Shown piece by piece: positions 21,441 through 61,300 of a stretch of 64,000 nucleotides of DNA. Both the position numbers and the translations under genes were made by a program. The notes beneath the pieces are model-generated. The model ran no database searches. It had not been told where the DNA came from and was given only the letters and a program-made list of their open reading frames with translations. Source of the stretch: Bispira polyomma (Eukaryota); the NCBI GenBank assembly GCA_965649765.1, contig OZ287748.1, positions 55,614,001 through 55,678,000 of the forward strand, written 5' to 3'. Positions within the stretch are counted from its first letter, which is position 1. Each line of letters begins with the position of its first letter.

Positions 21441-22214
21441 TGTTACATATAAGGACATTGTGGTATGTTAAAGCACTCTGCTAGAGTGATCTATTTATAG
21501 ATTTGGGGACACCCCTAAGCTTCTAGAAGCTGTTTCTATTTTGTTTCTGTTGTTATTGAAGCTGTCCTTATTTGTTTACATCTCAATCTGGAACATTCTA
21601 GCAATTGTTCACATATTCTAGCAACCTTCTCTAGCAGTTGTATATATAAGGATTGACAGCCTGGCCACAGACCAGAGTTTATTTAAGTTGATGTGCTATA
21701 CGAACTGCTATACTGTGAAACATTTTATTTCTTTTCCTGTGGATATAAACTGATTACTATATATGTTTTGTGGTGAACTCATTGGAGTGAACTAGATAAA
21801 AGTTGTGGATCTACCAGGGATTGGATTTACTGCATATTGGATATTTTTGCATCCTGGACTGGATAGCTTAGTTGGGCAGACTCTCTGGATATATACATTT
21901 TGTGTTCGTGGACACCAAAGGGATAAAAGGATACAGGCATTGTGTGGACACTGAGCGGATCTCAAGACAGATTGCTGGATACAGTGGTCAAACTTGTTTA
22001 ATTGTTATTTATGTGGACAGGACTGTGGTCAGGTCAGATTGGTTTCATTATTGTATTATTGTATAAACTATTAAGGGTATCTCAGTTGACTGTAATTCTG
22101 TAATTGTTATTTTATTTGTTAAATAAATTTGTCAAGTGAAACTTTTTGTCTTTTCCTGTTACAACCTCAAAGCAACCGGTAATTGCTACCGCGCTTGCTC
22201 CCGTCACCGTAACA
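21441..22214 (+). repeat. 3' LTR (774 bp)
   Basis: Copy of 15631-16405 with about 15 differences counted by eye. Confidence 0.97.
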
Positions 22215-28480: not shown

Positions 28481-31400
28481 ATGCTGAAGTTACTTATATT
28501 GGGACTTGGGCTCATTAGTCTTACTCATGCTTGGAAGACATACAGAGGGTAATTATAACTGTTACTTCAGTATTTTGTTAGGAATCAAAGAAGAAAGAAG
28601 CGTCTCAGAAAGAAAGAAATCTGCTATTATACATTCTTTTATATTCTAGTCAAATTTGACTTGTAATGTGGCCACTTATTGTAACCTTTGAAATTTACTA
28701 CATTTATTTTTTTATTTATTACAGTGACATGCACTTATTTAATATATTAATACAAATAAAATAGTTTTTCAATAGTGTTGCCCAGCCCACATGGGCTTAT
28801 ATGTCACTTCAACTTACCACATAATTTTATTGTGTGACTAATACATTTGCAGAATTCTGCAGTTAATAAAAATTTCAATAACAAAGTGAACATTGTTTTT
28901 CTACAATTGCTTTAACATCACACTCTCACTGTTTTTCACTATACTACCAAATTTAACTTTTTATTTTTACAAGAAATTTACATTACAATATATACCAAAA
29001 CAATTTAGTTACTGTTCAATTTTGTTTACCATTTACATAATACTACTTTTGGAGAAAGTTTTGCGGTATATTCCAAGATGTATTAAGGTAATTTGCTAGG
29101 GCCTTGTCAAAGTGTTTTACAATAGTTTAGGAACTTTTCAGTATCAGGGATAGTTACTAAAGAAGGAACACTTTCCCGTATAACATTATATAGAATATCT
29201 CTTGGTTTACTGTAAGCAGGACAGTTACAAAGAAAATGTATTTCATCCTTAATTACATTACTGTTACAAACAAGACATAATCGTTCTTCAGGGAATAGCT
29301 TCTGAAACTTTCTAGTATTTACATCTTCAGTCAAATTTTATCTCCCTGTGCTATCCTTAAAGGTAGCACACTGTACGAAATTGAACAAGGCGAGACCTCT
29401 TATGATTTTTTAATAGTATTTTTGCATACTTGTCTGGTTCCAATTTACATTTAAATGTCCAATACAATCTACGTTTTGGTTTAGAGTCTACCTCAGATTT
29501 TCATTCTTTCTCAAATACATTTGAAAGTTTTAATTTGTACTGGTCATTCATGTTGACCAAGACTTTAGAAGTTTATGCTTGTGACATATTTAGAACATTA
29601 AATAAATTTTTCATATTCGCTGACCAATTTGATTTACAGTTATTGTTATCCCAGAGAAAGATATTTTTTAACAACCTGTCTTCATTTGTTTTTTCTATTC
29701 CAAAGTCTAAACATGGATACATATTGTCCATACCTTCTTGGTATCATCGTTTCATATCGTCTATACAACTAAAAATGCCAAAATCCTCAATCGGAAATGA
29801 TTTAATTGCAATTTAATATATAACTCAAGTGGCAACCCATGTTAGAATTCCTTGTACCTTCAAACGTACCGCAATATGTTTTGTGCATTTAGTTACCGCA
29901 CTTACAAAGTGACACCCCAGACTGATGAACAAGTGATAAACCTGAGAAATATTCTGGATAATGATATTGAGGTAATTTATTGTATTTTACAATGGCAGTA
30001 ACTAAACTGAAGTACTTGTTCGTGGAACAATCCTTTTGGTCATCTTAAACTATAATATCAGTGATCATTACAAAGAAATAAAACTTGGTAACAAAACGTC
30101 CTCAAATATTATGCTTCCATTTAGTAAAACTTCTACCATTTTAAAGTAATTTTGCACCATTTTCACCCTAATTTTTGATAAATTTTCAGAGGCATTACAT
30201 TCTTAACATTGGTATGTTGTAGTTGTCATAGTCAACCAAAAGGACATTAAAAAAAAACCAAAGTTTATGACCATCTAACCGAAGTTACAAAAACAACCCC
30301 ATTAATATATTTTGATGGAATTCATTTTAATTTAATTATTAGACATTTGACTACTGTTAATTTCTGCAGTATTATGTATGAAAGCTTCTGTCATTCACAA
30401 TAGCTGCAATCGTTAGAGGTGAGCTCTGCATAAGGGTCTGCAAGGCTCTTGTGGTAAATTTCTCTAATCTGCCTGTAAATCTTGTTCCAGTGATTAACTT
30501 GGTCACCTTTAGGTAAAAATTAAATAAATCAATTTTTCTCGCAATTTTGGTGGATAGATGTAGCATTTTTTTAGCAGCCCTATATGTGTTCATTTCAAAT
30601 AGTTCTTGTTTACAAACCCTCCTGGCATGAGTTGTATAATTAAGTTAATCAGCTGCGACTGGTCAAGGTACTGACATCTGTTGAAGATATATATTATTGT
30701 CCTTTTGTAGCTAGATGTGTGGAAAGCCTCCCATGGAGTTGGTAATGAAGCCCATGTGATGGTCTCACCTGAAAAACGTCTCTCTTTCGCAGAACTTATG
30801 GTCAGGAAGGGTTTTACCCTTGGTGTACATGTGGAAGATGTAGGAGAGTAAGTCAAAGCTATTTGTTTACTGGGAGCTTTTTAAGTAGATGTACATGTGG
30901 CAGATGTTGGAGAGTAAGTCAAAGCTATTGATTTACTAGGAGCTTTTAAACTAGATGTACATGTGGTTTGGTCTTAATGGTACTGTCCTTGATTGGATCA
31001 AATCGTACCTTGCTCTTAGAACCCAAAAAATCAAATTGGGCAACCACTTTTCATCTTCTTTTAACCTACCATTTGGAGTACCCCAGGGGTCGGCTCTCGA
31101 CCCTTTACTGTTTACCCTCTGCACCCATCCTATCAGTGCAGTCATCAATAATCACAATGTTAAACATCACATGTATGCTGATCAAAGCTATTGGTTTACT
31201 AGGAGCTTCTAAACTGGATGTACATGTGGTAGATGTAGCAGAGTAAGTCAAAGCTATTAGTTTACCAGGAGCTTTTAAACTAGATGTACATGTGGAAGAT
31301 GTAGCAGAGTAAGTCAAAGCTATTTTTTTATGCAGAGCTTTTAAACTAGATGTACATGTGGTAAATGTAAGAGAGTAAATCAAAGCTATTGGTTTACCAG

Positions 31401-34400
31401 GAGCTGTTAAACTAGATGCACATGTGGTAAATGTAGGAGAGTAAATCAAAGCTATTGGTTTACTAGGAGCTTTAAAACTAGATGTACATGTGGAAGATGT
31501 AAGAGAGTAAATCAAAGCTATTGGTTTACCAGGAGCTTTTAAAGTAGATGTACATGTGATAGATGTAAGAGAGTAAATCAAAGCTATTGGTTTACTAGGA
31601 GCTTTTAAACTAGATGTACATGTGGTAAATCTAAGAGAATAAATCAAAGCTATTGGTTTACTTGGAGTTTTTAAACTAGATGTACATGTGGTAAATCTAA
31701 GAGAGTAAATCAAAGCTATTGGTTTACTAGGAGCTTTTAAACTAGATGTACATGTGGTAGATGTAGCAGAGTAAATCAAAGCTATTTTTGATCCCGGAGC
31801 TTTTAAACTAGATGTACATGTGGTAAATGTAAGAGAGTAAATCAAAGCTATTGGTTTACCAGGAGCTGTTAAACTAGATGTACATGTGGTAAATGTAGGA
31901 GAGTAAATCAAAGCTATTGGTTTACTAGGAGCTTTTAAACTAGGTGTACATGTGGAAGATGTAAGAGAGTAAATCAAAGCTATTGGTTTACCAGGAGCTT
32001 TTAAAGTAGATGTACATGTGATAGATGTAAGAGAGTAAATCAAAGCTATCGGTTTACTAGGAGCTTTTAAACTAGATGTACATGTGGTAAATCTAAGAGA
32101 GTAAATCAAAGCTATTGGTTTACTAGGAGCTTTTAAACTAGATGTACATGTGGAAGATGTAGCAGAGTAAGTCAAAGCTATTTTTTATGCGGAGCTTTTA
32201 AACTAGATGTACATGTGGTAAATGTAAGAGAGTAAATCAAAGCTATTGGTTTACCAGGAGCTTTTAAACTAGATGTACATGTGGTAAATGTAGGAGAGTA
32301 AATCAAAGCTATTGGTTTACTAGGAGCTTTTAAAGTAGATGTACATGTGATAGATGTAAGAGAGTAAATCAAAACTATTGGTTTACTAGGAGCTTTTAAA
32401 CTAGATGTACATGTGGTATATCTAAGAGATTAAATCAAAGCTATTGGTTTACCAGGAGCTGTTAAACTAGATGTACATGTGGTAAATGTAGGAGAGTAAA
32501 TCAAAGCTATTGGTTTACTAGGAGCTTTTAAACTAGGTGTACATGTGGAAGATGTAAGAGAGTAAATCAAAGCTATTGGTTTACCAGGAGCTTTTAAAGT
32601 AGATGTACATGTGATAGATGTAAGAGAGTAAATCAAAACTATTGGTTTACTAGGAGCTTTTAAACTAGATGTACATGTGGTATATCTAAGAGATTAAATC
32701 AAAGCTATTGGTTTACCAGGAGCTGTTAAACTAGATGTACATGTGGTAAATGTAAGAGAGTAAATCAAAGCTATTGGTTTACCAGGAGCTTTTAAACTAG
32801 GTGTACATGTGGAAGATGTAAGAGAGTAAATCAAAGCTATTGGTTTACTAGGAGCTTTTAAACTAGATGTACATGTGGTAAATCTAAGAGAATAAATCAA
32901 AGCTATTGGTTTACTAGGAGCTTTTAAACTAGATGTACATGTGGTAAATCTAAGAGAGTAAATCAAAGCTATTGGTTTACAAGGAGCTTTTAAACTAGAT
33001 GTACATGTGGTAAATCTAAGAGAGTAAATCAAAGCTATTGGTTTACTAGGAGCTTTTAAACTAGATGTACATGTGGTAGATATAAGAGAGTAAATCAAAG
33101 CTATTTGTTTACCAGCAGCTTTTAAACTAGATGTACATGTGGTAGATGTAGCAGAGTAAATCAAAGCTATTGATTTACTAGGAGCTTTAAAACTAGATGT
33201 ACATGTGGTAGATGTAGCAGAGTAAGTCAAAACTATTGGTTTACCAGGAGCTTTTAAACTAGATGTACATATGGAAGAAGTAGGAGAGTAAGTCAAAACT
33301 ATTGGTTTACTAGGAGCTGTTAAACTAGATGTACATATAGCAGATATACAAGAGTAAATCACAGTTATTTGTATACTAGGAGCTGTTAACCTAGATGTAC
33401 ATATAGCAGATATAGGAGAGTATATCAGTTATTTGTTCACTAGGAGCTGTTACACTAGATATACATATAGCAGATATAGAAGAGTACATCACAGTTGTTT
33501 GTTTAATAGGAGCTGTTAAACTAGATGTACATATAGCAGATATAGGAGAGCAAATCACAGTTATTTGTTTACTGGGGGATTTTAAACTAGAGGTACATAT
33601 AGCAGATATAGGTGAGTGTAAGTCAAAACTATTTGTTAACCTTTATTTTTCTTTGTAATTAGTGAGGTGGCTGAATTTAAAGCCAGACTGGATGCTAGAA
33701 GAAAACCTGATGGCAGAATGGACTTTAATCTGAATGATTACAATACTGTGGCGGACGTAAGATTTATGATTTGGCTAGCATCTTTGCAATGTTTCATTTA
33801 TTGATTTATAGTACAGTAATTTGAAGTAAATCTCTCCCCACCTTTCCCCCACCAATATAAGATTGGTTTTTGTTTGATAAGTCAGTCAAAGTAGATGTCA
33901 GGACTAGATTGTAGTTGGATTGAGGAAAAACCTCTATAATATTTAAAAAAGAAACCGCATAGTCTTAAATTATAAGACCTATTATTGCTGCACACAGTCA
34001 AATTCTAGTCATATGTGGAGACACAAATTTTGTCAATTTATATTTGTCATTAAATTGAAGTAAATATGTTTTTTTCTTTGAATACAGACTTTTGATCAAC
34101 TTTACATTTGGCAAAACAACTGTCCAAATGGCATCACTTGTGGAGTGAGAACAGTAGGGAATTCACATGAAGGCGAGAACACACTGATGTTTTGGGTAAG
34201 TTGTATTTGAGTGGCTTGTGATAAAATCAATGATTATGTACCATTTTGGAAGTATAAAAATTTGTTGGGATAATTCCATAAAACAAAAATCCTGGACAAA
34301 TTCGGGTCGCTCTGTCTGCTTCATAAATTCGAACAGTTTGTGTCAATCGTTTTCACATATTCATAGTAGAATGTATTTTGGAGAAGGATTGGAACAAGGA

Positions 34401-37400
34401 CACCTACTCAACTCCATACAAGCGTTATTGACCCGTCCAAACTCAGGGGTGTCAGATTTATATTATCAGGCGATTATCAGGCAAAGTCTTATGTTGTAAC
34501 CATGTTGAAAATAATATGTAAAACCTTTACAGATTGATTGGAAGTAATCAACCCAACCAAAACTTAGGGGTGTTAGACACACTGTGCGCTCATTTTTTTA
34601 AAAAGACAATTCTTGTTACACACATGCTTTATTTAAGAAGATGAATATATTATAATTTATTCCTTTCGGGTCAAATGGCGTACTGGAATTAAATGAACTT
34701 GCCCCATTTGTGACTTCCCCCCGAACAAATCCAACTTGTTTTGTAGTAAAAGTGTAAATAACTCCTCTTAGTACTCAGAGATGATGAAAGACATTGACTG
34801 GATATCAACAGGGTCTATATTTATACAACATCTTATACTCACAGTAATTGCCAATTTTTTGTATCCTTGTTTACATGAAGATATAACAAAAAGGGTGATA
34901 CACGGGCGGTCACAATAGTGTCTGGGTCATGATGGTGTCCGGGTCATAATAGTTTTTAAAGAACACAATGAGGGAAATTATTGTAGCATTTAATAAAATG
35001 GTAACATCTCTAGGTTATTCTTAATAAACAAAAATTGATACATGTCATATTTCAGTTTCATCATGAGTTTATTTTCACACCTTTGATAAATATGCTTCAA
35101 TGTGACCTTAAAGAATCAATCCATGGTCAAACAATATTCAATTGTTTTGTCTTCTTTAACCTGCAAAGCAGCAGGAATAAAACTATATTATATTTTGAAT
35201 TTTTTACTTGAGATAAAAATAGAAAAGAAATTCTTCCGAATCTCTATAGATATAAATGTATGGAAAACAAACTATTGAACACATTAAGCCACAGTTTTAG
35301 CTTATTGTAAGAATCAAACCATTCTTTCTTAAATACCCTGTATTTAATTGTATGAGGTATGTTATGAATTAAATACAAAATGTGATTTGGTAGTTTTGAC
35401 TATCATCGTTTTTTAGATAGCATCAAGATCAGTATACTGTATAACCCTTTGTTTCTTATAGTATACGCTTATAGTATATAGACTATACAGAAAAAAAACA
35501 ATCATGTGTGTTGTTAAAGGACCTTTCTGTGTTGACATATTATTAGATGTCGGGAGGAGGGGCAGGAGGAAATATTTATATAGATTCACTGACCCATGCA
35601 AGAGAAAGGTTGACTGGCACTACTGTGAACAACATGATAAATAAGGTAAATTCTGGTTTAAACTATTATAACAGAAGCTGTTAGTTACAAATGAGTACTA
35701 ATCTTGTTTTGTTGCATATATGTATATATATATATATATTTGGTGTGAATACTTGGATAGAATATGGCTAAGGAAGGTCCAAAGATGTAATGAAAAACAG
35801 ATTTTACCATGTAAAAATGGAACACTCGGTAATGTTAACTTACTGTATTGAAGTTACAATATGTATACAATTCTAAATACTAAACCTTATCTTGAGTAGA
35901 TTTTCTATGATTTCATTTTGACTTCGTGACACAGTATGTGGGTTTGTTTCAGATGGTTTTTGACTATGACAGTGATAGTGACGTCCAATATTTAGTGGAC
36001 AATTATGACTGGTACTTTGTGCCCATTGTTAATCCAGATGGTTATCAGTATGCTCTTGACGCGGTAAGTATGCACCATTTATTATTGAAACATTTCTGTA
36101 GCACCCTATTGATATAACATCATCCTGACACTCACTCTCCAAAAGGGATAGTACTACAACATAGTCTGGGTTGTCATCAGTAGACAATGGTATGTACACA
36201 TCTTGGTCCAGATGTTATCTCACCAATCCAATTAGCAGTATTAGCAGGAGCCGAACAGCAGACCCTGCCAATAACTAGACCAACTCCCCCAAACTAGAAT
36301 TGAACCAGAACCCTGTAATAGCTAAACCAACTCACAAGACATTAGGCTACGAGGGAACAGCAGAGAACTGTTACAGTAACACCTCTTTAAAACTGAGGCA
36401 AGGACAGTAAAACCTCTAGTATCCAAACATATTGGGAGAACAAGATTTTGTTCAAATAATGAAGGTTAATACAATAGAAGATACATTTCTTTATAAAACA
36501 ATAGGTTAACATATATTTGGAGAAACAATTTAATAAAATTGAATATATACCCCGGCAAGAATAAATTAAAAATTGAATAATAGAAGTTCCAATATATTCA
36601 CTAATCAATATCACATTTGTTCCCTTGCAGAATGAGCCACTTACTAACCGATACTGAGAACAGGTTACTACTTGAATTATTGTTGCACCTTTATTTTGTC
36701 GTCTCACAAAATATGATCCTCAAATCTCTATATTGGCTTCCATTTCAACAAGGGGCCGCGGTGGCCTAGTGGTTAGCAAGCATTGCGCTTCACAATCACT
36801 GGTCTGTCAGCTCTGAGCGGCGTGAGTTTGAATCCTGTCGATGCCTATGTGGGAAAGGTGGTAGTTCCTTACTGTGGGCCGCTGGTTTCATTGCAGAACC
36901 TTGATCAACTGTATGCAGTGTTTCCTCCAGCGTTTCCAACTACCCATCCCACTATAACCTAAACAGGTACTAGAGTGGACGTTAAATATCCAAATTGAAT
37001 TAAATTAAATCCACTTCAACAAACTCATGAATACAAGATCCTACTCGTATGTTTCAAGGCCCTACATGGTTTCACATCCAGTTAACCTGGGCTTCCTTTC
37101 AGCATGTATTTCTCGGCTGACGTTGGCCGATATCGGCCAATTTCATTGATCATTATTTAATATTAGGAGGTGCTTCCTTTCAACACAGTTCCCCCAGATC
37201 AGACGTCGGCCGACGTCTGTTCCCCCATCATAATTTATCGGTCAAAGAGTGAAAAAAATCGAGAGGTCTGTCTGAATCTAAGGTTTGAACAAAAATTAAA
37301 AAAAAAATCTCACACCATTTTACATAGTATATATTAGTTCACAGGAAGCCCTACATCGGCTGATGTCGGCTCGTCTCGGATTTCAAAAAAATCTGCTGAC

Positions 37401-40400
37401 TGCTGAAATAAGCCCAGGCCAACATCACCAATCCCCAACCAGATATATTTGAAATCGCTGCTCAAATCAGGTTTACATCAATTACTGTTAGAATCAAGAA
37501 CTAATACATTGGGAGATCTCACTACATCGCAGTAATGATATATTCTGCCTGTTATCTCACTACACCGCAGGAATGATATATTCTGCCTGTTAAAGTGAAT
37601 AGGTACTGGGGTTTCCTCTCAAAAATTGTTGTAAAAATGATATCCATTACATTTGTCTTGGAATTTTTTTATATCTATAATGTTCATATCCAAGTATAAC
37701 TATGTAGTACCTATTCAGTGTTATTTGTCGTATTGTGTCTTTGTTGTATCCTAATGTCGACTTGTATATTTGTTTGGAGGATGCAATGTGGAGAAAAAAC
37801 CGTGAGCCTAATAGTGGCAGTGTTTGTATTGGAACAGATCTGAATAGGAACTTTGACACTGGTTTTTGGGGAAGTGAGTCATTGCTATTTTTTTTCTGTA
37901 ATGAATTAGTAAAGAATATATGTAATCACCAAAGGTTGCAGGTAAATGTGTACAGATGCAAAAAAGTTAGTAACAGTTCATACATTTTGGTGCAATCTCT
38001 TACAGTTGGACACTGCTTCTACACATATTCACAGGAATATCTTTGGTCAACTTGTCCGTAACATGCCCATGTGTGGTATTAATCAATTATTATTTGTACG
38101 CTGTTCAGACTATTTTAGATTGACTCGTGATTGGGGATTGATTAAGATTTAGCTTCAGGTTCTTTTATGGGGCAGGTGAAAGCTTTGTGTACAATACACC
38201 AATCGGGTAAATAAGCGGGGGCTGAGATTTCTGTAGCTTTTGACGTTTGGTATGTCATGTACAGTAGATTTTATGAACTGGTTTGTAACTGGACCTTCTA
38301 TGGCAGTTTTAAATACATTATTTGAAATTCCCACAGGTGATGGTACTTCCACTAATCCCTGTTCTGACACATATGGAGGTGCAAGTGCCGCTTCTGCACC
38401 TGAGACAGCGTATATTCAAGACATGTTGATTGAACTAAATCCCAAAATCATGATCAGCATCCATTCCTATGCCAACATGTGGCTTCAACCGTTTGGTCAC
38501 CAAGAGGGATTTACTTGTGCACGCACGGACATAGTCATGCACAATAATATGGTATATAGGGTTGCTAAAAATGGTAGATACAGATACATAAAGTTGAGGA
38601 AATTGGATTTACTGAATTGTCACCTAATGGTAACTCAATTGAGTACCGTTTGGTTGCCTTAGGCAATTCTCCTACATACATATAGAATCTTTAAATTTAA
38701 TTGAATTGGAGCAAGTTTTACAGGAAAAGTGGAGAAATCTACCCCAAGAAACAGCTATTTTACAAGCCAAAGGCTTTCATACTTAATACTAAACAAATTA
38801 ACAGTAGTCAACGTTAATGTCCTGTTAGTTTAGTTAACTGTAACTGTCGCAATTATGTTGTAAAGAAAATGTTTAAATCGCCTCTAAAAATCAACATTAC
38901 ATAAATATTCTGTAAATGTTCCAATAAGTATATGTACTTTAAAAATATACTTCAATTTTATCAACAATTAGGTGGGTGTATCTACCATCAAAACACTTAA
39001 GTGGTACAATGGCCAAATGAAATTGTCAATACTAGTTTACATTTAATTGTACAGTTTTGATAAAGGGTTTTGATAAAGTTGTCATTTTAATATAGTAATT
39101 TTAACACTAAATAATCTTGAAGTAAACATTACCAGACCATAGTGCATATATTATATATTAGTACAAATATAACTACACAATATTGCAGCAACATTTTATG
39201 TTGACTTTTACATTAGATGGATGCAGGGCAAGCAGCTATTGATGCAATTATGGCAGAAGGTGGACAGAGCTGGGTTCGTGGCACTGTGTGTGAAACTATA
39301 TGTAAGATACATTTCTGCTATTCATTCATAATCATAGCCATGTTTTTCAACATTGCAGAACAATTATAGGATATCCATATTCCCCTTTTATATTAAGAAT
39401 AGAAGTCTAAAATCCAGACTATGTTATTGGTAACATTGTATTCTTTTCAGGCGCAACCTCTGTGGCTACAATCAACTATAATTAGTTTTCAAAAATTTTA
39501 TATGAATTAATTGGGTTATGAGCCAACTTGTATTATTTTTATTATTATGTGATATTTCTAAAGAACTGTAACTATTAAAAGCACAATGTGCTTTACAATA
39601 CATATGTTGTAAAAGTTAAAATATAACAAAATGAAATGGGGTAATGGATATAAAAAGAATAAAAATATGTCCAGGGTAGCACAATTTCTAGTAAAAATGT
39701 GTCTTTAATAGTTACTTGAATTCATCTGTTGAATCAGCTGGTTTGATGTCCATTGATAGTTTATTCTATAACTTTGGTGAAGTTTAGTGAAAGCTTTTGC
39801 TTTTATTGGGGGTGAATCTAGGAGTTTGATTCCTGTAGTAAGATGGACCAAGAGGTAACAATTTGGTTTACTGTATATATTTTAGATCAAACCTCTGGAG
39901 TTACTTTATATATTTCAGACCAAAGCTCTGGAGGTGCTGTATATATTTCAGACCAAACCTCTGGAGCTACTGTACATATTTCAGATCAAACCTCTGGAGC
40001 TACTGTATATATCTCAGACCAAAGCTCTGGAGCTACTGTATATATTTCAGACCAAAGCTCTGGAGGTTCTGTATGTCTTTCAGACCAAACCTTTGTAGGT
40101 ACTGTATGTCTTTCAGACCAGACCCTTGTAGGTACTGTATGTCTTTTAGACCCAGCTTCTGGAAGTACTGTATGTCTTTCAGACCCAGTCTCTGAGGTAC
40201 TGTATATCTTTCAGACCCAGCCTCTGAGGTACTGTTTGTCTTACAGACTCATCCTCTGAGGTACTTTATGTCTGTCTGACCAAATTCTTGAGGCACTGTA
40301 TAACTTTCAGACCCATCCTCTGAAGGTACTGTATATCTGCCTGTCCAAATTCTTGAGGTACTGTTAACTTTCGGACCAAACCTGTAAAGTACTGTATATC

Positions 40401-40579
40401 TTGCAGATGCAGCCTCTGGTGGTACTGTAGACTATGCTATGACAACTAGTACTCTCTACAGCTACACTCCTGAATTGAGAGGAAACAGCTTCAATCCACC
40501 AACATCGCAAATACAGCCAGCTTTTGACGAAACATGGGCTGGAATTGTGGCACTTGTTGCAGAAACTGAAACACATTAG
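28481..40579 (+). CDS. Secreted M14A zinc metallocarboxypeptidase (prepro-CPA-like), copy 1; exons 28481-28548, 29893-29971, 30711-30847, 33663-33756, 34088-34195, 35547-35645, 35953-36063, 37780-37873, 38337-38551, 39217-39301, 40407-40579 (~420 aa)
   Basis: Signal peptide MLKLLILGLGLISLTHA; propeptide YRGYRTYKVTP..LDVW..HVMVSP..VEDV; HARE (His69/Glu72), PIVNPDGY, WRKNR (Arg127), GTDLNRNF (Asn144/Arg145), NPCSDTY, SIHSY (His196), IYAASGGTVD (Tyr248), YTPELR (Glu270). All junctions are GT-AG and phase-compatible (1263 nt); AATAAA at ~40664. Confidence 0.93.
29100..29820 (-). mobile_element. Decayed non-LTR retrotransposon 3' end in carboxypeptidase intron 1
   Basis: Minus strand: KPKRRLYWTFK..RSRLVQFR..LPLRI.., ERLCLVCNSNVIKDEIHFLCNCPAY (C-terminal CCHC typical of LINE ORF2). 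Confidence 0.75.
30822..33640 (+). repeat. 66-bp minisatellite (~39 units) whose first unit is the exon-3 3' end plus splice donor of carboxypeptidase copy 1
   Basis: Unit AGATGTACATGTGGWARATGTARGAGA|GTAARTCAAAGCTATTGGTTTACYAGGAGCTTTTAAACT; the real donor GT is at 30848 and the next at 30914. Confidence 0.96.
30968..31182 (+). mobile_element. CR1/L2-group LINE RT fragment inserted in the 66-bp array
   Basis: WFGLNGTVLDWIKSYL..GVPQGSALDPLLF..HHMYAD; same 5' junction as the insertion at 57824. Confidence 0.9.
36751..37010 (+). mobile_element. tRNA-derived SINE, most complete copy in the window
   Basis: GGGGCCGCGGTGGCCTAGTGGTTAG (A box), GAGTTTGAATCC (B box), conserved core, 3' GGACGTTAAA and AATT-type tail. 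Confidence 0.75.
37086..37419. mobile_element. MITE inserted in a short LINE 3' fragment
   Basis: Imperfect TIRs CCTGGGCTTCCTTTCAGCA / TGCTGAAATAAGCCCAGG; internal palindromes such as AGACGTCGGCCGACGTCT; left flank reads EYKILLVCFKALHG. Confidence 0.65.
39869..40429 (+). repeat. 33-bp (31-33) minisatellite, 17 units, whose last unit is the true splice acceptor plus start of the final carboxypeptidase exon
   Basis: Unit TACTGTATATATTTCAG|ACCAAACCTCTGGAGC; true junction TACTGTATATCTTGCAG|ATGCAGCCTCTGGTGG followed by TACTGTA. Confidence 0.93.
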
Positions 40580-41269
40580 GTAAATGTTGCCTTGACGAGG
40601 AATCAAGATGAAATACATTACACGTGAAGATTCAGATGTGTTGCTTTGTGTAATAGTTGTGAAAATAAAACATACCTGTCTTCTGTATGTTTCTTTTGGT
40701 TTAAACCCTAAATGTTTACATTTCAGAATGTCAGATAAATGCCAACAATTTTATAGTTCAGTGTTTTCTGTATTGGGTATTACCTGAACAGTAAAAATAT
40801 ATTTTAGCTTGAAATTAATTTTATTTTTTTTTTACAAATAAGCTTACATAGTGGTTGATAAACATTGAAATTACTGAAAAAAGAGAAAAACAAATAACCA
40901 AATTAATAGGGCCAGTGAGAATGATTGGCCATTGTGGTCAAATATATTTATATCCTGGAACAACAATACAGGATAGTATGGCTTTGGTCCTGTTACGTCA
41001 CCACCACTGGCACTTAAAATTTGCATTTGGAAAAGATGACTCAAAAATACTTTGACCTACGTTTTTTATGTTTGGTAGCACACTTGAATTTTGACCTTTA
41101 TTCTCAATAGTAGTCTTTGTATTGCCCAATTTTGGGCATTTAATCACATTTCTCTGTAGCTTGGATTATCTTAATAAGTAAAATAGATACATAATATTGT
41201 CTGGATAAATTTGACACTGAAGCGGTTACTCTAAGGTCATCCACAGAACACCAAAATACCAACATTTGT

Positions 41270-41880
41270 CATTCCTGTTACTATCACATTTGTGATATCA
41301 CTTGTCACTGGACTGCCATCACTGTGGCTAACTCCCTTATAAGTAGCCACCATGACTACTGCCATTCCTTTCTGTTTGGGTAAAAATGTTTCACATAAAC
41401 AAGTAACAGTCTATTCCAAACCATCTGTGTAAAGTCATTTTTTGTCTTGGGATCTGTGCTGATGTCTCTCTATACATCAAACAATTATAATGACTTGCTA
41501 TTTACTATTGAATTTTGTTTAAAATCGATGTAACCACTTTCAAATCTGTTGTGTCTCAACAGCCATCCTATCTTGCTGCTTGCATTTTCTTTAGCAACCT
41601 TAACAGGAGAAAGAGACTTTCTATTTTGTCTGTAAAACCTACCAAGAGCACTGGATGTAGAGCTTTTTCTATTGCTGCATATGGTATGGTCTCCTAATTG
41701 AGCTTAGATCACTTAACGCACTGTCTGGGTTTAGATAAAAAGTTTAAAACCCATCTCCTCAAATGCCCCTACTTCCCTCCCTATACACTTCCCTCTTTAC
41801 GACCATGGTTATGTTTTTGGACTTATCAACTGGTCAATTGATTCGGTTGTTGTTTTAGATGATGCCTCACATCAATAAGA
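41270..41880 (+). mobile_element. Highly decayed CR1/L2-group LINE 3' fragment
   Basis: ILFKIDVTTFK.VVSQQPSYLA..SVKP..RAFSIAA, homologous to 22700-22850; tail TTAGATGATGCCTCACATCAATAAG. Confidence 0.75.
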
Positions 41881-44225
41881 AAAAAATATTTATTTGGTCA
41901 GTAAATATGCGTATTCCTTAAAAAATTTCAGTAAATACATGTATTTACTGGTTTCACACGTTTACTGTTGGTCATTTTAGTAAACATGTGTAATGACAAC
42001 ACTTTTGCAAGTGTTTCATTTATATTTAAAAGATAAATATCAATGTTTAGTGATTTCATCAGTTTTTATTTCGCAAATGATGTACATGAAGTATTATGGG
42101 TGGTTTGGTGTTCTAGAAGTTATTAATGCGTCTGTCTTTATTTAGGTCACTTTAAAGCACACTACATCACATATATTTTTACATTTTTCTTTATTTGCAC
42201 AAGAGTAGCCAAAATATTGTTTTTAATTTATTATTATATTATTTCAAAAATTATTGAAATTAAAGATGATTTTACATTACTATTTAATTAAATAAAGACT
42301 AAAGGTAGTAAGGTTTTGTAAAACTTTCCTTTAATATAATTGTAACCAGTCAACTGTGGCTTCTATAGCAGGCAAATATCATCAAAGACTCAATTACATG
42401 TCTGTAAAAGCCACACTACCTTTGATGGTAGTATATTAACAAGATTAAAAGTACCCTTTTTAAACCCTTGTGAAATGTGGCTTCTGTGGAAGGTAAATCT
42501 CATCAAATAATCACAATTGCCAATCAAGGCCAGTGTGTCTATGAGAGAGGCAGTAATTAAACAGGGATTTGCGAAATGTAACTGTAGTGAAAATCAGTGC
42601 AAAAACAATATATGTGTTATAAATATAAGCTTAAACGCAACAGCAGGTGCTGCTCTAGTTTATCCTGCAGATATTCTGTTCTCTAAACAATCGGCTTTCA
42701 GCAAGTCTACTGCCTACACATACATACCATAGCAAAGAATCAACTTCACAACTGCAGAGGTGGGAGTCAAGTGTGTTACTACTACACCACTGAGGTCTCT
42801 AATCAATCTCTGTGGAGTACTAAGTGCGGGTAACTGGTAATGTTCCTGAAGAACGGTACAACTATCACAATGGATTAATTACCTTTTTATGTATATCCTG
42901 TCTCAAACTGTTAACTACCTTGCTTGAAGAGTTACTGTTTAATACTGTTTTATATTTGATACTGTTTTATATTGTGCTCTATGGTGCTCGACCCTTTTCT
43001 GTCCTTGGATATTGAAATTGAATTACTGTCTTTTGCGCTGTTGCGCCTTAGAGTCCCCTTCGTTAAGGGAAGATTAAGCGCTAAAAAAGTCTAATTACAA
43101 TTACAATTTATAATAACAAGCTCTAAGAATAAATTTGGGGTTTCTCCAGTCATCTAACAAAGCAAAGTTACATAAACCCTCCTCATCTGATGTATATGTA
43201 TTAAGATTTTTTTAACTTTTGTTGCATTAAGCAAGTAATAAAATTTATTCTTGTAAATCATGTCTGTATGCCAGAGGGGAATCTACCATTTTTAGCAACC
43301 CTGTATTTACAGAGAGTTTTTGTAGTGATACCAGCAATTAATTGCAACTTACCATATTTTTCATGAACACATGATGACTATAAATTTTGTTGTGGATAAT
43401 ACTGACACCATACTACATGCAAGAAAAATAAGGTTGTAGTTGAAAATACTAACAATTTAATGTACAGGTGTGTCAAGCACGACAACTTTAGGGATCTGCT
43501 GGTTCAGTTCACCATCCCAACAAATACCCCTTTTATAAACCTATTCTTGTTCACTGAGATGCCCTTTCCACCTTTCCCAGTCAACCAATCACTAATGAGA
43601 ACCCCCCTTAATTAGTTTGTGGGTCCCAACTTTTGGGTGCCATTTTTGAAACAGTCAAACTGAAGATTTTATTTATTCCCACCTCCCACCGTGCTAACCA
43701 CGCAAGGCTCAATAATTAAAGCAAAAGTCCACGCAAAGTTGTAAAACCCCATGCAGAAATCCATTTTTATTTTTCCTTACGTCAAACACGTTTTATTAAG
43801 TAGAGAACCACGTTTTCTTACGTTAATACATGTGAAGACTCGCAAGTGATGCAAACTGTTACGTTAAAATGTTTACGCAAAGACACACAAACATATGTAA
43901 GACTATATATATGGATACATCAAAAGACGTCATATTATCACAGGGGAAATTTTGAGTAGGAACCTTTAATGTGTTGTCCCCATGACATCATATATAAAAT
44001 GATAAAATGGAGATGTAATTAGGTAGTTGGATCTTTTCTAGCTTAAACATACTTTTAAAATTGTAAACTTCTTTTGATATAAAATGTTTTCATAACAATA
44101 GGTGTTTGTGGTGTAGCCATCAAAGGACATCTGTTTATGTAAAGTAAGATATGTTTCTGTATAACACACAAAATACATTTTAAATATGAGATTGGTCAAG
44201 TTGATCAGATAAATTTACACTTAAA

Positions 44226-44931
44226 TGTTACTGGGACATAAAAGGTTTATTGTCATCAGGGTGTATTGTTTGAACCCGGATGTCTGTATGTAGTGTTATG
44301 TAATCAGGGTTATATGGCAGGAAGTAACTAGGGTAGAGATAAAGGACCAGACAGTGATTAAAAGAGAACACATCTGGCATCAAAAGGAACAAACCCAGGC
44401 AGAGTATCATTTAGCATATAAACTAAGATAATAGGCTGTTGGTTTGGGAGCTAGGTAATTATAATGGGGTTGGGGATGTGATTGGCTGTTAGAAAGGTAA
44501 AGTGTAGCTTATATTTTGAGTATAAATATAAGGGTCTTCTAGGATCAGGGCAGAAAGAAAAGAAGAGAAACAGACAAATCAGAGATAGAGAGTTTTTAAG
44601 AGAGAGATAATAAGTGTTATATAGAATTTACAGAAATAGATTACACAGAGAAATTAATGAAAAGAGATTTATTTATGTGAAAACTGAGATATAAATAAAT
44701 GATAGAATCTATATGAGTATTTAGTAGTGAATGAGAAAGAGTATTAAAGTGACCAGAGAAGTAGTGTTTGAATCAATATAGTTATTTGTGAAATGTGTGA
44801 AATATATATGACTAATTTGTTATAAATAAAAGTAATTGTTATATTGTGTACCTGAAGAAATAAAGTGAGAAAAGAAAGACATTAGTTTATATGAGTTGAA
44901 ATAACAAACAAGAAAAAAATATGTTATAATA
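44226..44931 (+). mobile_element. Possible solo LTR nested in the Harbinger 5' region
   Basis: Starts TGTTAC, contains TATAAATA (44521) followed by a purine-rich region and AATAAA, and interrupts the ACGT-rich subterminal sequence; no TSD identified. Confidence 0.3.
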
Positions 44932-45278
44932 TTGCATTTGATTATTACGTTGTGTGTATGTTTTAATACGTTAACTTATGTAATGTTATGTTTGCCACGT
45001 CAAAGTAGGTAAACTTGCGTCAATTGATATGTGCATTGACGTCCCATCACGTATATTATGTCAATACTCGTTTGATCACATCAGGCGACATTTCTAAAGT
45101 ACATGTACGTCACTGCACGTACATCATGTGGCTTCTCGCACCACAAAGTAGCTATCTATTGAGAGATTTTTCACAAAGCATGTTCATTCACTTGTGAGCC
45201 TTTATATGATAAGGAGCTTACATTTAACAATAAAACAATTGTTTGACAATAAAATTATTTTATTTCATAAGTATAACA

Positions 45279-47550
45279 ATGGCTGTAGCTAATTTTCCAC
45301 AACAACTTGTTTTAAATCAAGCTATGAATTTGCAAGTATAAGGTTTGAACAATGTTGTAGATCTGTTGCAACTGCGTCAGAGGCAGAGGAGAAGGGCTCA
45401 AAGGAGGGACAGGACAGTGTGGGTTAGGCCATGGCTACTAAGACGGAGACAATACTGTTACTATGAAAACCTAATGGCTGAATTAGAGGCAGAAGATCCA
45501 GCTAGTTACAGAAACTTTATTTGTTGTGACCCACAGTTCTTCAGGGAACTGATGAACAGGCTAGACGGCAGACTGACCCATCAAATAAACAACTACAACA
45601 CCCACTGACCTGCACTTGATGTTGGCTTAATGTTGGCCATTACTATGAGATATCTGGCTTCTGGACAAAGCTATCACAGTCTGATGTATGGTTTCAGGGT
45701 GGCACAAAATAAGGTTCTGGATCTCTGTATTTTAACTACAAAAAATTCATATCTATTGTACTTATGGCAGTGATAGATGCTGAATACAAGTTTATGTGGA
45801 TCGATGTTGGTGCCAATGGTAGTTGCAGTGAAGCACAGCTGTGGAACCATTCCCCCTTAAAACCTGCTTTGGAGAATTGGTGGCTCTGTCAAGTGGTGCT
45901 TGGGGTGTCTTTTATTCAAATGTTTCTGTAGACGTGGCTCTGTGGTAGTTGTGTGTTTCCGGCGGGTTCCACCACTTGACAACAGTTGAAGTCCAAAATA
46001 ATAATAGTTTTTTTTGTTAGCTTTTTCATCACACTTTATTTCTTCTTTTAAGAAACTTAAAAATATTTAACAAACAACAGTTGTAGTATCATATTAAATC
46101 TTGATGTTACTTTTCTGTGAGGCCTGATATAACTGGCTCTTTATTACAGACTCTGCGCACAAAGCCCAGAATGCTGTGCTTAGCTCATCTCATCTCATCA
46201 TGTCACAATATCTTAATAATTTTCTGGAGTATGTGCTGCTCCTTATATACACAACATTGGCATGCATGCCATGAGTCACACAGATAACAATCTTTGGAAT
46301 TCTACGGGAAACACTGGTCACATGGTTAGAGAAAATAAGTAATTTAGTAAATGTTGATGCATTGCTTGGTCATGTGATCAAACCATTGCCTTTTATAGTA
46401 TTGGCAAGGGTCATGTGATTTATCATCTGATTAGGAAGAAAGAATTGTTGATGGTCATGTGACTAGGAAGCCAGAATTGTTGATGGTCATTTGACCAGTT
46501 ATCTGATAATATTTAGATATCATTGCCTTATATGGGGTGTCATGTGATCTGCATAGGATTGTGGGTAATATAGTTTTTGATAGCTGAAAGGGTCACATGA
46601 TTACATATTTTGCTAAACCTAAGTGTATGGGAAGAACCTTGGACTACATTCCTAAGGAATGATGCACAGGAAACAGGGTTTCTTAGTGCATACACTTGTA
46701 TAAAACTGCATGCTTACACATTGATAAAATACATTATATGTTTGAACATAGTTGTCAAAAAATATGATGATACCATATACTTACAAAAGATTCATTATTA
46801 AACATGTTGCTTTTAACTTTTTTACTGACATAATAATTACTTACTTAACAATGTGGTATTTACTTTTAAACTATAAAATTTAAATGACATTTGCATGATT
46901 TATAATATTCATATGCTTGACTTACCTTAAACTGTTTAATTACATTTACTTTTAATAACATTAACTACATGTTTTATATTATATACAGTTTCTAATGAAG
47001 TAATAAGAACAAAGAAAATAGTAACAAGAGCCTCCTTAATAGCTCACTGTTCCTCCACCCACACCACTACCTGGGGATACTCAACCGGTGCCTTACTTTC
47101 TGTTGGCAGATGATGCTTTTGCCCTTACTAAGACTCTGATGAAACCATTTGGGCACAGAAATCTCACCCGTCCTGAGAAAATCTACAATTACAGAGTGTC
47201 ACGAGCCAGACGAGTGGTTGATAATGCCTTTGGCATATTGTACAACGGATTTCAAAGTCTCACCACCAAACTTCAACATGATGTGCCCAATACCATTCGT
47301 TTTACTACGGTGTGTTGTATTTTGTACAATATCTTTTGGTTAAGATATGCTACCAATCATGTGGAACTGGAGAGAGAGGATGTTGACCATAACCTGATAT
47401 GTGATGCCTGGAGACAAGGATTGGACATGACATGGATGATATTTTGACCGGCAATACATCCAACAAGGAGGCCAAGGCTCATAGACAATTATTGAAGATA
47501 TACTACAACAGCGGTGGTGCAGTTCCATGGCAGGATCGTACGAGAACATA
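45279..47550 (+). pseudogene. Harbinger DDE transposase (HARBI1-like) remnant, split by a ~1.15-kb insertion (~45880-47050)
   Basis: VWVRPWL, YENLMAEL, ITMRYLASGQSYHSLMYGFRVA, FNYKKF.SIVLMAVIDAEYKFMWIDVGANGSCS, PYFLLADDAFAL, YNYRVSRARRVVDNAFGIL; contains stops, frameshifts and an internal deletion. Confidence 0.9.
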
Positions 47551-55374: not shown

Positions 55375-58300
55375 ATGATGAAATCACTCATTCTGGTACT
55401 TTGTCTCCTGAGCCTGACCGTGGCGTGGAAAACCTACAGGGGGTAAGTCAGGATATTCTTCTGGCTGTGTCACTGTATTTAAGCTGCACAGTCTGGTATT
55501 GTAAGCATTATCCAGACCAACTGTTAATTTTTGGTGGAAAGCCTTTTTGCTTTCAGTAATCAAATACTGACAGTGTATGCACTCGGATATTACTATGACT
55601 TCTATGTAGCTATGTTGACAAAAAAGATTTAATATAAACATAAGCTGTATGTTATAGGGAAGAAAAAAAGTTTTCTTTAGACTGTTGATATTGCAAGATA
55701 TAAACCGATGTTTATTTTAGTTGCCATTTCTTATTACATGCACTTATCTGTAAAGAAAAATAAGATGATCAAAACCCCATAATGATGTGAATACCTTCTG
55801 TATACTCTATTTTCATTATAAAAAGATATATTTAAGATAAATTGTCTGTAGAAACTGACACAAACTTAAAAATATTTTTTGTTATTTCTTTCTTTCTGTA
55901 AGTTGTGTGGTTGATAGTTGAGATGTTATGGAGAATCAGTGTAGTTTACATGTATTAAGCTATTTTAAGTGATGATGTTATGGAGAATCAGTGTAGTTTA
56001 CATGTATTAAGCTATTTTAAGTGGTAAATAAAGAGGTAATGCCAGCCACCCATTATTAAAATATATATTGCACTCTTTATAACTTTTAATAATTATCCAC
56101 TATTTTTCGAACTCTTATTTTGTAGTTAGACAATACTTTGCAGCCTGTCCAAATAACCTTTGTTTTGTCAAGATTCTAAGACAGATCACCAAATATATCC
56201 AGTGTATTTAATGTAGCCTGCACGGAAAATTTAATTCCACCTAATATGATTGCAGTGCCATCTGTGAATTGCATTTAATTTATTGTTTGAATTCCAATTG
56301 TACACCAAAATACTGCTAGCATAAATTAGACATGTTAGAAATGTTACTACATTTTATCACATGATAATAGGAATTAATATTGTTTGTGATAACAAATTTG
56401 ACCTTTTTACAAAATACTTTTTTAAAGAGATGACTATAGTATTTTTGACTTCCTGGTTTTGTCTATTTGCAAAAAAAATAAGCATTGTCATATGATATTT
56501 AGCTTGATATATCAGTTTATTTTCTATCATTAATAATATCAAGTACTTTGCTGGCTTTTGGTTTGTTTATACATGTATTTAAATAGTTACAGCAATATTT
56601 TAATCTGTCTGAGATTAAATAAAAGTCGCCGCATATGATGATATTATCACCTTTGGCAGTCTTAGCTAATTATTTTATAATTTGTTTTTGATGTTTTTTT
56701 ACCTATATTTTTATTAGATATCGCACTTACAAAGTGATCCCACAGAGTGAGGAACAATTGAAGGATTTACGAACCATCTATGATGATATAGAGGTAATAT
56801 AATGCATAAACTTTAAATGTAAACCAATTTGATTTTGCCACAGTTCGTTACATAAAGAGAGCATTGTACTGGTTTCAATTGCTTTAAATGTGTTACAAAT
56901 TGCAATGTAACTTTACAACATAAGTAAAAAGATAACATTATTGTTGTGTCCAAAATGAACACCTGCTACCCATATTTTCACAATAGACGAAATTTTAACA
57001 ATGACTATAGCTGTGAATCATTGTGAAATAATTATTATAATCATTATTAATAGCAACAATCTTGAAGCATTTGGTTTAGCATATCTAATACCATCCCGAA
57101 AATATGTACTTGCCACTGGATAAATAGTTTAGATTAATTATGTGGTCTACTTCCTTAGTGTTGCCATGTGATACTAATGTCATCAAACTCAATGTTGCAG
57201 TTGACCTGTTCTAGTTTCACGGTTTAATTTTTTTTAAAGACTGTGCAAACTATAAAGTAGTGGAGCACCGTATGTATTCGTGATTCTTCTGTTTACTTTG
57301 CAGCTGGATGTGTGGAAAACTTCCAGTGGAGTCGGTGATGAAGCCCATGTGATGGTCTCACCTGAAAAACGGCTGTCTTTTGCAGAACTCATGGTCAAGA
57401 AGGGTTTTACCCTTGGTGTACATGTGGAAGATGTAGGAGAGTAAGTCAAAGCTATTTGTTTACTAGGAGTTTTTAAACTAGATGTACATGTGGTAGATGT
57501 AGGAGACTAAGTCAAAGCTATCAGTTTAAAAGAAGCTGTTAAAATAGATGTCATGTGGCAGATGTAGCAGAGTAAGTCAAAGTTATTGGTTTACTAGGAG
57601 CTTTTAAACTAGATGTACATGTGGAAGATAAAGGAGAGTAAGTCAAAGCTATTGGTTTACCAGGAGATTTTAAAGTAGATATACATGTGGTAGCTGTAGG
57701 AGACTAAGTCAAAGCTATTAGTTTACTAGGAGCTTTTAAAGTAGATGTACATGTGGTAGATGTAGGAGAGTAAGTCAAAGCTATTTGTTTACTAGGAGCT
57801 TTTAAACTAGATGTACATGTGGTTTGGTCTTAATGGTACTGTCCTTGATTGGATCATTTCATACCTTGTTCTTAGAACCAAAAAAATCAAATTGGGCGAC
57901 CACTTTTCATCCTCTTTTAACCTACCATTTGGAGTACCCCAGGGGTTGGTTCTCGGCCCTTTACTGTTTACCCTCTACACCCTTCCTATCAGTGCAGTCA
58001 TCAATAATCACAATGTTAAACATCACATGTATGCTGATGACAGTCAAATCTCTCTCTCTCTCTTAACACTCAGAATGCTGGATACAACCTGGATTTAATT
58101 GCCGACTGTCTCTCCTCAGTTCAGGCGTGGATGAACTACTCCAAACTGAAACTAAACCCTAACAAAACTGAATTCATCCTAATTGGAAATAAGAAAGTGA
58201 ATACTTAAGATCACTTTTCCCAATCACACTGCTGGGCAATGAGATTCAACCTTCAGACCAGGTAAAAAAACTAGGTGTCACTATCGACCCGGCTTTTTAT

Positions 58301-61300
58301 TTTTTTTCCTCACATTAATACCATCCGCCGCTCCTGTTACTATCACATTCGGGACCTCAAAAGAATCCGAGATTATCTGTCACAGTCCTACCCACAAGGT
58401 ACAGCCCAAAATTCAATCTTCACAGGCAGGCACAAATTTTGTTTTATCAGGCTTAACTTGACCCTTGAAAACACACAAATGCTCTGTTAAGTTGAAAGTC
58501 CAACTTTATGCTAGACTGATGTGGCCTGGAAAACCACTGATGCCTTGGATAAACAAACATGCAGAAGACAACACACTCCTCCCACTGTACAGTCTGGTCT
58601 TTTATTTAAATAAGCTGCACAGTTTTATGAGGATGATTTGGGTGGGGGGTGGGGGGGATTTGTGAAGTAGAGTATGAAATAAAAGATTTTTACACTGTAA
58701 AATATATTTTAATTTTCTGCTATGTTCTTTTAAAAAATATGATAAAGCATTAAATACTGAACAGTTATATTATTTACAGTAATAGGATAATAAGGATATA
58801 GATGTGGAATACACAAATATTTTATACATTATATATACAAAGGCAACTATTTAACAGTTACACTTTCAAGAAACTGGAGGTTTTTAATTTCTGCATTTCT
58901 TAATTTTCATACTATTAAAGTTTTAATAAAAATATTTTAACTGAAATTATACACACATAAGATACACACAGAAACAGTTGCATTTACTAGCTCTTAGGTT
59001 TTGCTACTGACAAATGAGCCAAGTTAACCAATGTTTTAATCATTGAAAGTCAGAAATGGGAGGATAGGAAGGATAACGGGGATAGAATTGGTTGCCTATC
59101 TCTTCAGGCCTGCCTATCTGCCGTAGTCCTCTTCCTGGGTGCTGACATATCCATCCTTACAACCTGGCTATGTTTTTTCATTTTTCTATTGGCTGATTGA
59201 TTCTGATGTTGCGCCTTAGAAGATGCCTAGCATCAATAAGGCGCATTAAAAATGTACAATACAATACAATGTGGTAGATGTAGGAGAGTAAGTCAAAGTT
59301 ATTTTTTATGCCGAGCTTTTAAACTAGATGTACATGTGGTAGATGTAAGAGAGTAAATCAAAACTATTGGTTTACCAGGAGCTTTTAAACTAGATGTACA
59401 TGTGGTAAATCTAAGAGAGTAAGTCAAAGCTATTGGTTTACCAGGAGCTGTTAAACTAGATGTACATGTGATAGATGTAGCACAGTAAGTTAAAGCTATT
59501 TGTTTACTAGAAGCTTTTAAACTAGATGTACATGTGGAAGATGTAAAAGAGTAAATCAAAGCTATTGGTTTACTAGAAGCTTTTAAACTAGATGTACATG
59601 TGGCAGATGTAAGAGAGTAAGTCAAAGCTATTGGTTTACTAGGAGCTGTTAAACTAGATGTACATGTGGTAGATGTAGCAGAGTAAATCAAAGCTATTGG
59701 TTTACTAGGAGCTTTTAAACTAGATGTACATGTGGAAGATGTAGCAGAGTAAGTCAAAGCTATTGGTTTACCAGGAGCTTTTAAACTAGATGTACATGTG
59801 GTAGATGTAAGAGAGTAAATCAAAACTATTGGTTTACCAGGAGCTTTTAAACTAGATGTACATGTGGTAAATCTAAGAGAGTAAGTCAAAGCTATTGGTT
59901 TACCAGGAGCTGTTAAACTAGATGTACATGTGATAGATGTAGCACAGTAAGTTAAAGCTATTTGTTTACTAGAAGCTTTTAAACTAGATGTACATGTGGA
60001 AGATGTAAAAGAGTAAATCAAAGCTATTGGTTTACTAGAAGCTTTTAAACTAGATGTACATGTGGCAGATGTAAGAGAGTAAGTCAAAGCTATTGGTTTA
60101 CTAGGAGCTGTTAAACTAGATGTACATGTGATAGATGTAGGAGAGTAGATCAAAGCTATTTGTTTACTAGGAGCTTTTAAACTAGATGTACATGTGGCAG
60201 ATGTAGCAGAGTAAGTCAAAGCTATTGGTTTACCAGGAGCTTTTAAACTAGATGTACATGTGGTAGATGTAAGAGAGTAAGTCAAAGCTATTGGTTTACT
60301 AGGAGCTTTTAAAGTAGATGTACATGTGATAGATGTAAGAGAGTAAATCAAAGCTATCGGTTTACTAGGAGCTTTTAAACTAGATGTACATGTGGTAAAT
60401 CTAAGAGAGTAAATCAAAGCTATTGGTTTACTAGGAGCTTTTAAACTAGATGTACATGTGGAAGATGTAGCAGAGTAAGTCAAAGCTATTTTTTATGCGG
60501 AGCTTTTAAACTAGATGTACATGTGGTAAAAGTAAGAGAGTAAATCAAAGCTATTGGTTTACCAGGAGCTGTTAAACTAGATGTACATGTGGTAAATGTA
60601 GGAGAGTAAATCAAAGCTATTGGTTTACTAGGAGCTTTAAAACTAGATGTACATGTGGAAGATGTAAGAGAGTAAATCAAAGCTATTGGTTTACCAGGAG
60701 CTTTTAAAGTAGATGTACATGTGATAGATGTAAGAGAGTAAATCAAAACTATTGGTTTACTAGGAGCTTTTAAACTAGATGTACATGTGGTATATCTAAG
60801 AGATTAAATCAAAGCTATTGGTTTACCAGGAGCTGTTAAACTAGATGTACATGTTGTAAATGTAGGAGAGTAAATCAAAGCTATTGGTTTACTAGGAGCT
60901 TTTAAACTAGGTGTACATGTGGAAGATGTAAGAGAGTAAATCAAAGCTATTGGTTTACCAGGAGCTTTTAAAGTAGATGTACATGTGATAGATGTAAGAG
61001 AGTAAATCAAAACTATTGGTTTACTAGGAGCTTTTAAACTAGATGTACATGTGGTATATCTAAGAGATTAAATCAAAGCTATTGGTTTACCAGGAGCTGT
61101 TAAACTAGATGTACATGTGGTAAATCTAAGAGAGTAAATCAAAGCTATTGGTTTACCAGGAGCTGTTAAACTAGATGTACATGTGGTAAATGTAGGAGAG
61201 TAAATCAAAGCTATTGGTTTACTAGGAGCTTTTAAACTAGGTGTACATGTGGAAGATGTAAGAGAGTAAATCAAAGCTATTGGTTTACTAGGAGCTGTTA

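Follow-up and report, generated by a model that had tools for sequence, protein, structure and literature searches.

The Carboxypeptidase Gene and Its Junction Arrays

The stretch of Bispira polyomma DNA analyzed here (64,000 nucleotides, referred to as the window) harbors a gene whose product is predicted to be an M14A metallocarboxypeptidase. The catalytic motifs HARE, WRKNR, NRNF, SIHSY, ETI(Y) and YTPEL occur in successive open exons, PF00246 matches are found, and the last exon aligns to residues 250-304 of bovine carboxypeptidase A (PDB match, E=1.4e-5). These motifs contain what we take to be, by assignment of the bovine numbering, the zinc ligands (HxxE and His196), Arg127, Asn144-Arg145, Tyr248 and Glu270. 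Besides this alignment of the last exon, bovine carboxypeptidase A has the motifs and the Val at position 255 in common with the predicted product, whereas the gene considered here (A) belongs to a cluster of four tandem paralogs with intronic junction arrays, a search of the genome against itself having revealed three further copies (B, C, and D) downstream of it.

The end of the last intron of A is occupied by a tandem array that runs into the last exon (39869-40429; period 33, 17.2 copies, 79% matches in TRF; Table 1). As the first-pass annotation of this DNA had claimed, its unit is the acceptor together with the first 16 nt of the exon, i.e., 17 intron bases and 16 exon bases, and the heptamer TACTGTA stands at both bounds, at the start of the array in the intron (39869) and at its close in the exon. 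The consensus of the sixteen decoy units is identical to the real junction (40390-40422) at 27 of 33 positions, and single units at 20 to 28, which is the similarity on which that claim had been made to depend. The distribution of YAG was likewise read correctly: it is present in units 1-12 and 14, absent from units 13, 15, and 16, and followed downstream by the real acceptor TTGCAG, whose AG ends at 40406. The AG is replaced in the context CTG in unit 13, CGG in unit 16 and, by eye, CTG in unit 15, where the automatic alignment was gapped. Tandem units that straddle a boundary between exon and intron of the gene in which they lie are the hallmark of the minisatellites called mirages, and the period of 33 bp lies inside their range of 10-160 bp (PMC3087553). 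The splice dinucleotide survives in many units, though not in all (YAG in 13 of 16), and the array displays concerted evolution with less homogenized edges, units 1-6 and 10-11 being mutual nearest neighbors and divergence per site amounting to 0.22 in units 13-16 vs. 0.14 elsewhere.

The annotation had asked whether the last intron of the paralog carries the same array; those of B and C do, whereas that of D has a separate one. The array of B is identical to that of A (0 of 561 positions differ; 17.2 copies in both). In paralog C, the array amounts to 9.6 units and includes the unit-13 type, and a TTTCAG persists 32 nt ahead of the real AG. The 33-bp array is of equal length in A and B and shorter in C, and two samples are alike in this respect. 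In D, a 64-bp unit is repeated 13.1 times at the same acceptor; it contains longer pieces of exon and intron and is therefore likely of separate origin. All 11 decoys detected in D keep their AG and score 5.4-7.3, above the real site (4.7), so that intact decoys appear to be tolerated.

The same gene bears a second mirage, a 66-bp array that spans a donor site and sits in the intron of the propeptide exon (57417-62038 of the window in B). The decoy nearest the exon retains GTAAGT. B carries 6.2+42.0 copies of it, C 7.2+25.6 and D 3.7. Over long stretches (window 33599-46422 vs. G000:C1 +28.4 kb), the identity between A and B amounts to 99.5-99.8%, which points to a very recent tandem gene duplication. 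Since these near-identical copies carry about 39 and about 48 copies of the 66-bp unit, that array seems to be unstable to this day; the 33-bp array, of equal length in both, gives no such indication.

Table 1. Positions in the window of the features of carboxypeptidase gene A discussed in the text.
Feature	Position	Strand	Remarks
Second mirage, 66-bp donor-spanning array	30824..33598	+	Exon end 30847, GTAAGT; 2.2 + 36.7 copies
Penultimate exon (predicted)	39217..39301	+	Ends ...ETI-(T); phase-1 donor GTAAGA at 39302
Open frame of 138 aa	39843..40259	+	Read as a by-product of the 11-codon unit, without sign of protein-level constraint
Sixteen decoy units, 31-33 bp, acceptor-spanning minisatellite	39869..40389	+	YAG kept in 13. 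Starts of units 1-8: 39869, 39902, 39935, 39968, 40001, 40034, 40067, 40100; of units 9-16: 40133, 40166, 40198, 40230, 40262, 40294, 40327, 40359; real unit then at 40390
Unit 13	40262..40293	+	CAG to CTG; the resulting branch-point-like CTGAC precedes the intact AG of unit 14 by 32 nt
Branch-point-like TTAAC in unit 16 (candidate)	40364..40368	+	Its A precedes the real AG by 39-40 nt; found in paralogs B and C as well
Real junction unit	40390..40429	+	17 intron bases ending TTGCAG (40401-40406) and 16 exon bases, then TACTGTA (40423-40429)
Last exon, coding part, M14A carboxypeptidase	40407..40579	+	YTPEL Glu270 motif; stop TAG 40577-40579
AATAAA, candidate polyadenylation signal for the last exon	40664..40669	+	From sequence

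Predicted Products of the Decoy Acceptors

If used, the decoys would yield products devoid of Glu270. When the donor at 39301 is joined to each of the 13 AG-bearing decoys, all 13 products stop before the Glu270 motif, in agreement with the earlier suggestion that distal acceptors could produce proteins truncated ahead of this residue; two decoys are in frame with the real exon, and their products also stop ahead of it. A regulated alternative-acceptor cassette should give in-frame, catalytically complete products, and none of the 13 reaches Glu270; hence none is a specificity variant. The peptide pattern that the annotation had predicted for the decoys is obtained, as Y-Q-T/S-S-G-x-x, from units 1-6 and not from units 7-12 and 14, which would encode YQTFVG (unit 7), YQTLVG (unit 8) and YPA, YPV, YPA, YSS, and YPS (units 9-12 and 14). 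That the unit copies the segment of the substrate-specificity loop is most likely incidental, given that exons of kinesin, myosin, DEAD, ABC, aldehyde dehydrogenase and dynein genes bear the same kind of array.

The 138-aa open frame reported within the array is present. As a gene it was rejected, since codon-position constraint is absent; third codon positions of decoys 1-12 vary less than first and second positions (5/60 vs. 28/132), with a nominal p=0.04 calculated on units that are not independent. Several decoys of array A score at least as high as the real acceptor (5.4-8.6 vs. 7.2). The AG|GT donors internal to the array score 0.4-3.4, the median of called donors being 8.0, and micro-exon or recursive splicing via AG|GTACT was rejected because these donors are weak. 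A second CAG is found 6 nt into the last exon (40407-40412) in all four paralogs, and its in-frame product would lose Tyr248 and one neighboring residue.

Loss of the Decoy AG

All three losses fall within the last four units, in copies A and B alike, which gives a naive positional p of 0.007, and they had been interpreted as a purge restricted to competitors near the real acceptor. This interpretation is unsupported as a rule, since paralogs C and D and the genome-wide counts go against it. Units 13 and 15 have the tail CCAAATTCTTGAGG in common, and their unit type recurs in paralog C; the loss in these two units is probably one ancestral change, so that about two events, not three, need to be explained, for which p is 0.03-0.05. 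In addition, units 13-16 are more diverged everywhere, and the loss of AG from at least two of four edge units is therefore unremarkable (p=0.50; p=0.17 for at least three of four).

Across arrays of the genome, the nearest decoy has AG in 45/51 cases vs. 122/134 for decoys further out (p=0.58, two copies more than 1000 nt away being excluded). The junction probe used for these counts overlooks units that have diverged strongly, among them units 13, 15, and 16 of array A, so that the counts lean toward intact decoys; four nearest units that it missed (loci L250, L320, L375, and L424) have an intact AG by eye. The AG or GT of decoys in these arrays erodes no faster than the flanking bases. A general proximal purge was rejected on the genome-wide and paralog counts. 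Nor could selection to retain decoy AG or GT be established: the p-value for the donor G is 4e-7 when seven irregular or duplicate loci are excluded and becomes 0.07 when only paralog duplicates are dropped, and the same test of acceptor AG conservation, with only paralog duplicates dropped, gave p=0.74. We infer that the absence of AG from units 13, 15, and 16 mostly reflects edge decay, and a local effect on the single unit located between the branch-point-like motif and the real AG is possible.

Frequency of Junction Arrays in the Genome

The frequency of such arrays was estimated at splice sites predicted from DNA alone, with a matrix learned on this genome. Sample 1 was built from exon matches of Pfam families in the genome (120 of 127 extra regions were fetched) and consisted, after removal of duplicates and short flanks, of 332 multi-exon and 59 single-exon matches; sites scoring below 4 (36/331 acceptors and 52/332 donors) were dropped. 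The junction probe ignores AG and GT and was confined to the 300 nt on the intron side of each site. It detected junction copies at 30/295 acceptors and 30/280 donors, vs. 148/6195 and 143/5880 intronic controls (2.4%), which are non-independent positions and include arrays of neighboring exons. Sample 2 comprised 111 matches (14 of 16 AMP-binding, 14 of 14 Aldedh, and 83 of 86 dynein), and the excess was repeated in it, with 21/98 acceptors and 8/93 donors vs. control values of 2.4% and 3.3%. When both samples are pooled, 89 of 766 predicted splice sites (11.6%, about one in nine) are flanked by junction copies, vs. an intronic baseline of 2.5%, and the junction is found in the end unit of an array 4-5 times as often as intronic positions are. 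In the 59 single-exon controls, none of the matches contained an array end. Matches to P450, kinase and sugar-transporter families were mostly single-exon; the first two families were used as controls, and the 10 sugar-transporter loci were left unused. A preference for acceptors over donors was rejected (51/393 vs. 38/373, p=0.26), sample 2 alone leaning toward acceptors.

Among M14A genes, the Tyr248 acceptor is accompanied by repeats in five of nine lineages, with units of 33, 64, 61, 96, and 46-49 bp. Outside the cluster described here, this holds for three of seven lineages (p=0.026 against 10%, a post hoc comparison), two of which carry only 6-7 exon bases. Other M14A genes with repeats of their own at the homologous acceptor are L319 and L320 (G000:C4:72163984 and 72188995), L330 and L322; in L319 and L320, most decoys encode Pro-Pro where the real exon encodes Ala-Ala.

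Origin of the Array and Choice of the Acceptor

We regard it as probable that the array is a mirage minisatellite, in which a piece spanning the junction became tandemly repeated, slippage at TACTGTA being the likely seed, and that its sixteen spare acceptors are near-neutral passengers spliced out with the intron. A single duplication between the intronic and the exonic TACTGTA would have placed a copy in the intron and kept the exon complete downstream of the last AG. The 33-bp unit may then have been amplified by unequal exchange, at a pace later slowed by interruptions. The acceptor used in the last intron would be the exon-proximal AG, which, together with the polyadenylation site, would define the last exon, perhaps with the help of the TTAAC in unit 16. 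Judged from the sequence, the decoys are likely silent in splicing.

A complementary proposal, compatible with this explanation, is that the array displaced the old branch point and that selection favored the new TTAAC in the nearest unit along with the loss or masking of the AG that follows it. As the unit holds only 10-17 intron bases, the old branch point would have been pushed away. Such local compensation would fit the TTAAC found at -40 in A, B, and C and the position of the surviving decoy AG of C, only 8 nt past the branch-like A; in the myosin array L250, YTRAY is found in the nearest unit and in just one other. This motif is weak evidence, as it occurs in 92/295 control windows vs. 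117/295 windows at acceptors. Units with fewer than 15 intron bases were found in 1/21 acceptor vs. 14/28 donor arrays of sample 1 (p=6e-4, post hoc), but a pre-stated replication failed (4/16 vs. 2/6, p=1.0; pooled p=0.004), and at least 20 intron bases were present in 11/16 acceptor arrays, where at least 85% had been predicted. The rule that acceptor units must hold the whole 3' signal, of at least about 20 intron bases, was therefore abandoned as a post hoc find unreplicated in sample 2. Against local compensation also stand the change in unit 13, by which a CTGAC arises 32 nt before the AG that unit 14 retains, and the resemblance of the upstream flank to the branch region of D, which is non-significant (p=0.08) and leaves a stranded ancestral branch point upstream of unit 1 unsupported. 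On balance, we hold local compensation to be possible but somewhat doubtful. The excess of junctions in end units raises a different problem for the mirage explanation, since neutral slippage alone does not account for an enrichment of 4-5 times. Exon-intron junctions of this animal might be hot spots where arrays are born or retained by an undescribed junction-linked mechanism, with arrays at the Tyr248 acceptor exchanging sequence with the exon and varying the substrate-binding loop; we consider this combined proposal improbable.

That the arrays serve as a gene-conversion reservoir rewriting the codons with which the last exon begins (residues 249-254) seems to us quite improbable. The real junction of D shares TTTTAG|ACCC with its four nearest decoys, its most distal unit ATGCAGCC resembles the real exon of A, and the real exon starts with Ala in A/B and L319/L320, most decoys having Pro or Gln. 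Homogenization of the array by the exon accounts for D equally well, however, and two samples are identical over the array stretch. Regulated use of the decoys, with distal ones generating an enzyme without Glu270 as an off-switch or with variation of the S1' loop, is in our view very improbable, for lack of a catalytically complete product and because of the weak internal donors. Decoy scores that resemble those of real acceptors would fit regulation, as would the reduced variability of third positions in decoys 1-12 and the location in the last intron, where a premature stop in a decoy product would have no exon junction after it. On the other hand, unit length and number vary among paralogs (33x17 in A and B, 33x9.6 in C, 64x13 in D), and unrelated genes bear the same arrays. 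Finally, the identity of A and B over the array might suggest an artefact of assembly, a reading to which we give practically no weight. The units are only 79% alike, the diverged paralogs C and D have arrays of their own, and a false duplication of B would leave the array itself in place. Assembly error is also unlikely given that 39338-40620 is covered, in each of three DNA runs, by one contig showing 0 differences, these runs representing at most two samples from one study that is possibly the assembly's own source.

Comparison With Known Repeats

In lancelets, mirages are known for Adh3, the globins BflGb6 and BflGb9, troponin C and PGBD5, and they are reported, in the parts of the two papers drawn on here, to leave splicing undisturbed (PMC3087553; PMC3902484). 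They have in common with the arrays described here that boundary copies lie within the adjoining intron, that the unit falls in the 10-160 bp range, that AG or GT is present in many units but not in all, that acceptor and donor types exist and that edge units diverge. The array of BflGb6 is of the acceptor type, like the 33-bp array. The host here is Bispira polyomma and not a lancelet, a rate was obtained (89/766 predicted sites) where those reports deal with single genes, and the lancelet cases are backed by RT-PCR, whereas the present ones are known from genomic DNA. A quick CYP4 tree of 33 sequences, thinly sampled (2 from this genome and 31 of the 120 hits listed, molluscs not among them), places the animal with the annelid Owenia (SH-aLRT 96) and away from Branchiostoma, so that it is probably a spiralian; a DDX5 search was uninformative in this regard. 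In the literature searched, which included few subscription journals, neither a genome-wide count of mirages nor a report named mirage from outside lancelets was found.

A 37-bp VNTR in intron 7 of human F7 has an edge unit that spans the exon-intron boundary; its spare donors are functional yet normally silent, the exon-proximal site winning in a series of 50 constructs (PMC1557585). The nearest counterpart in the gene described here is the 66-bp donor array. The F7 repeat concerns donor sites, while acceptor choice, as in the 33-bp array, also requires a branch point. CBS 844ins68, considered as an analogue by acceptor duplication, was set aside, the part of PMC4296076 consulted not describing it so.

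Taken by itself, the locus is an unremarkable case of a repeat type already described; what is of modest interest is the genome-wide rate. About 12% of the sampled predicted splice sites adjoin near-perfect copies of themselves, mostly with an intact AG or GT, which makes this genome a natural test bed for intron gain through tandem duplication and for the way in which the spliceosome selects one among many equal acceptors. Gene predictors may choose decoy sites in it. The four paralogs offer a ready series for minigene work, in which the nearest unit is without AG, an AG stands at -32, or full decoys recur every 64 nt.

Several other features were observed along the way. Two myosin genes (G000:C6:37887644-37892497 and C6:7860820-7866666) have open frames of 1688 and 1950 codons; part of the myosin profile is matched twice in the first, and both probably represent mirage arrays of great length that stay in frame. 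At loci L058-L087, introns are absent from the entire domain in dozens of cytochrome P450 genes, and single-exon kinase ORFs, many of them near-identical, are dispersed over the chromosomes. Elsewhere in the window, positions 15631-16405 and 21441-22214 form a 775-bp direct repeat of 98% identity, about 5.8 kb apart, possibly the long terminal repeats of a retroelement, and a 38-bp minisatellite of 18.3 copies (TRF) occupies positions 3675-4369.
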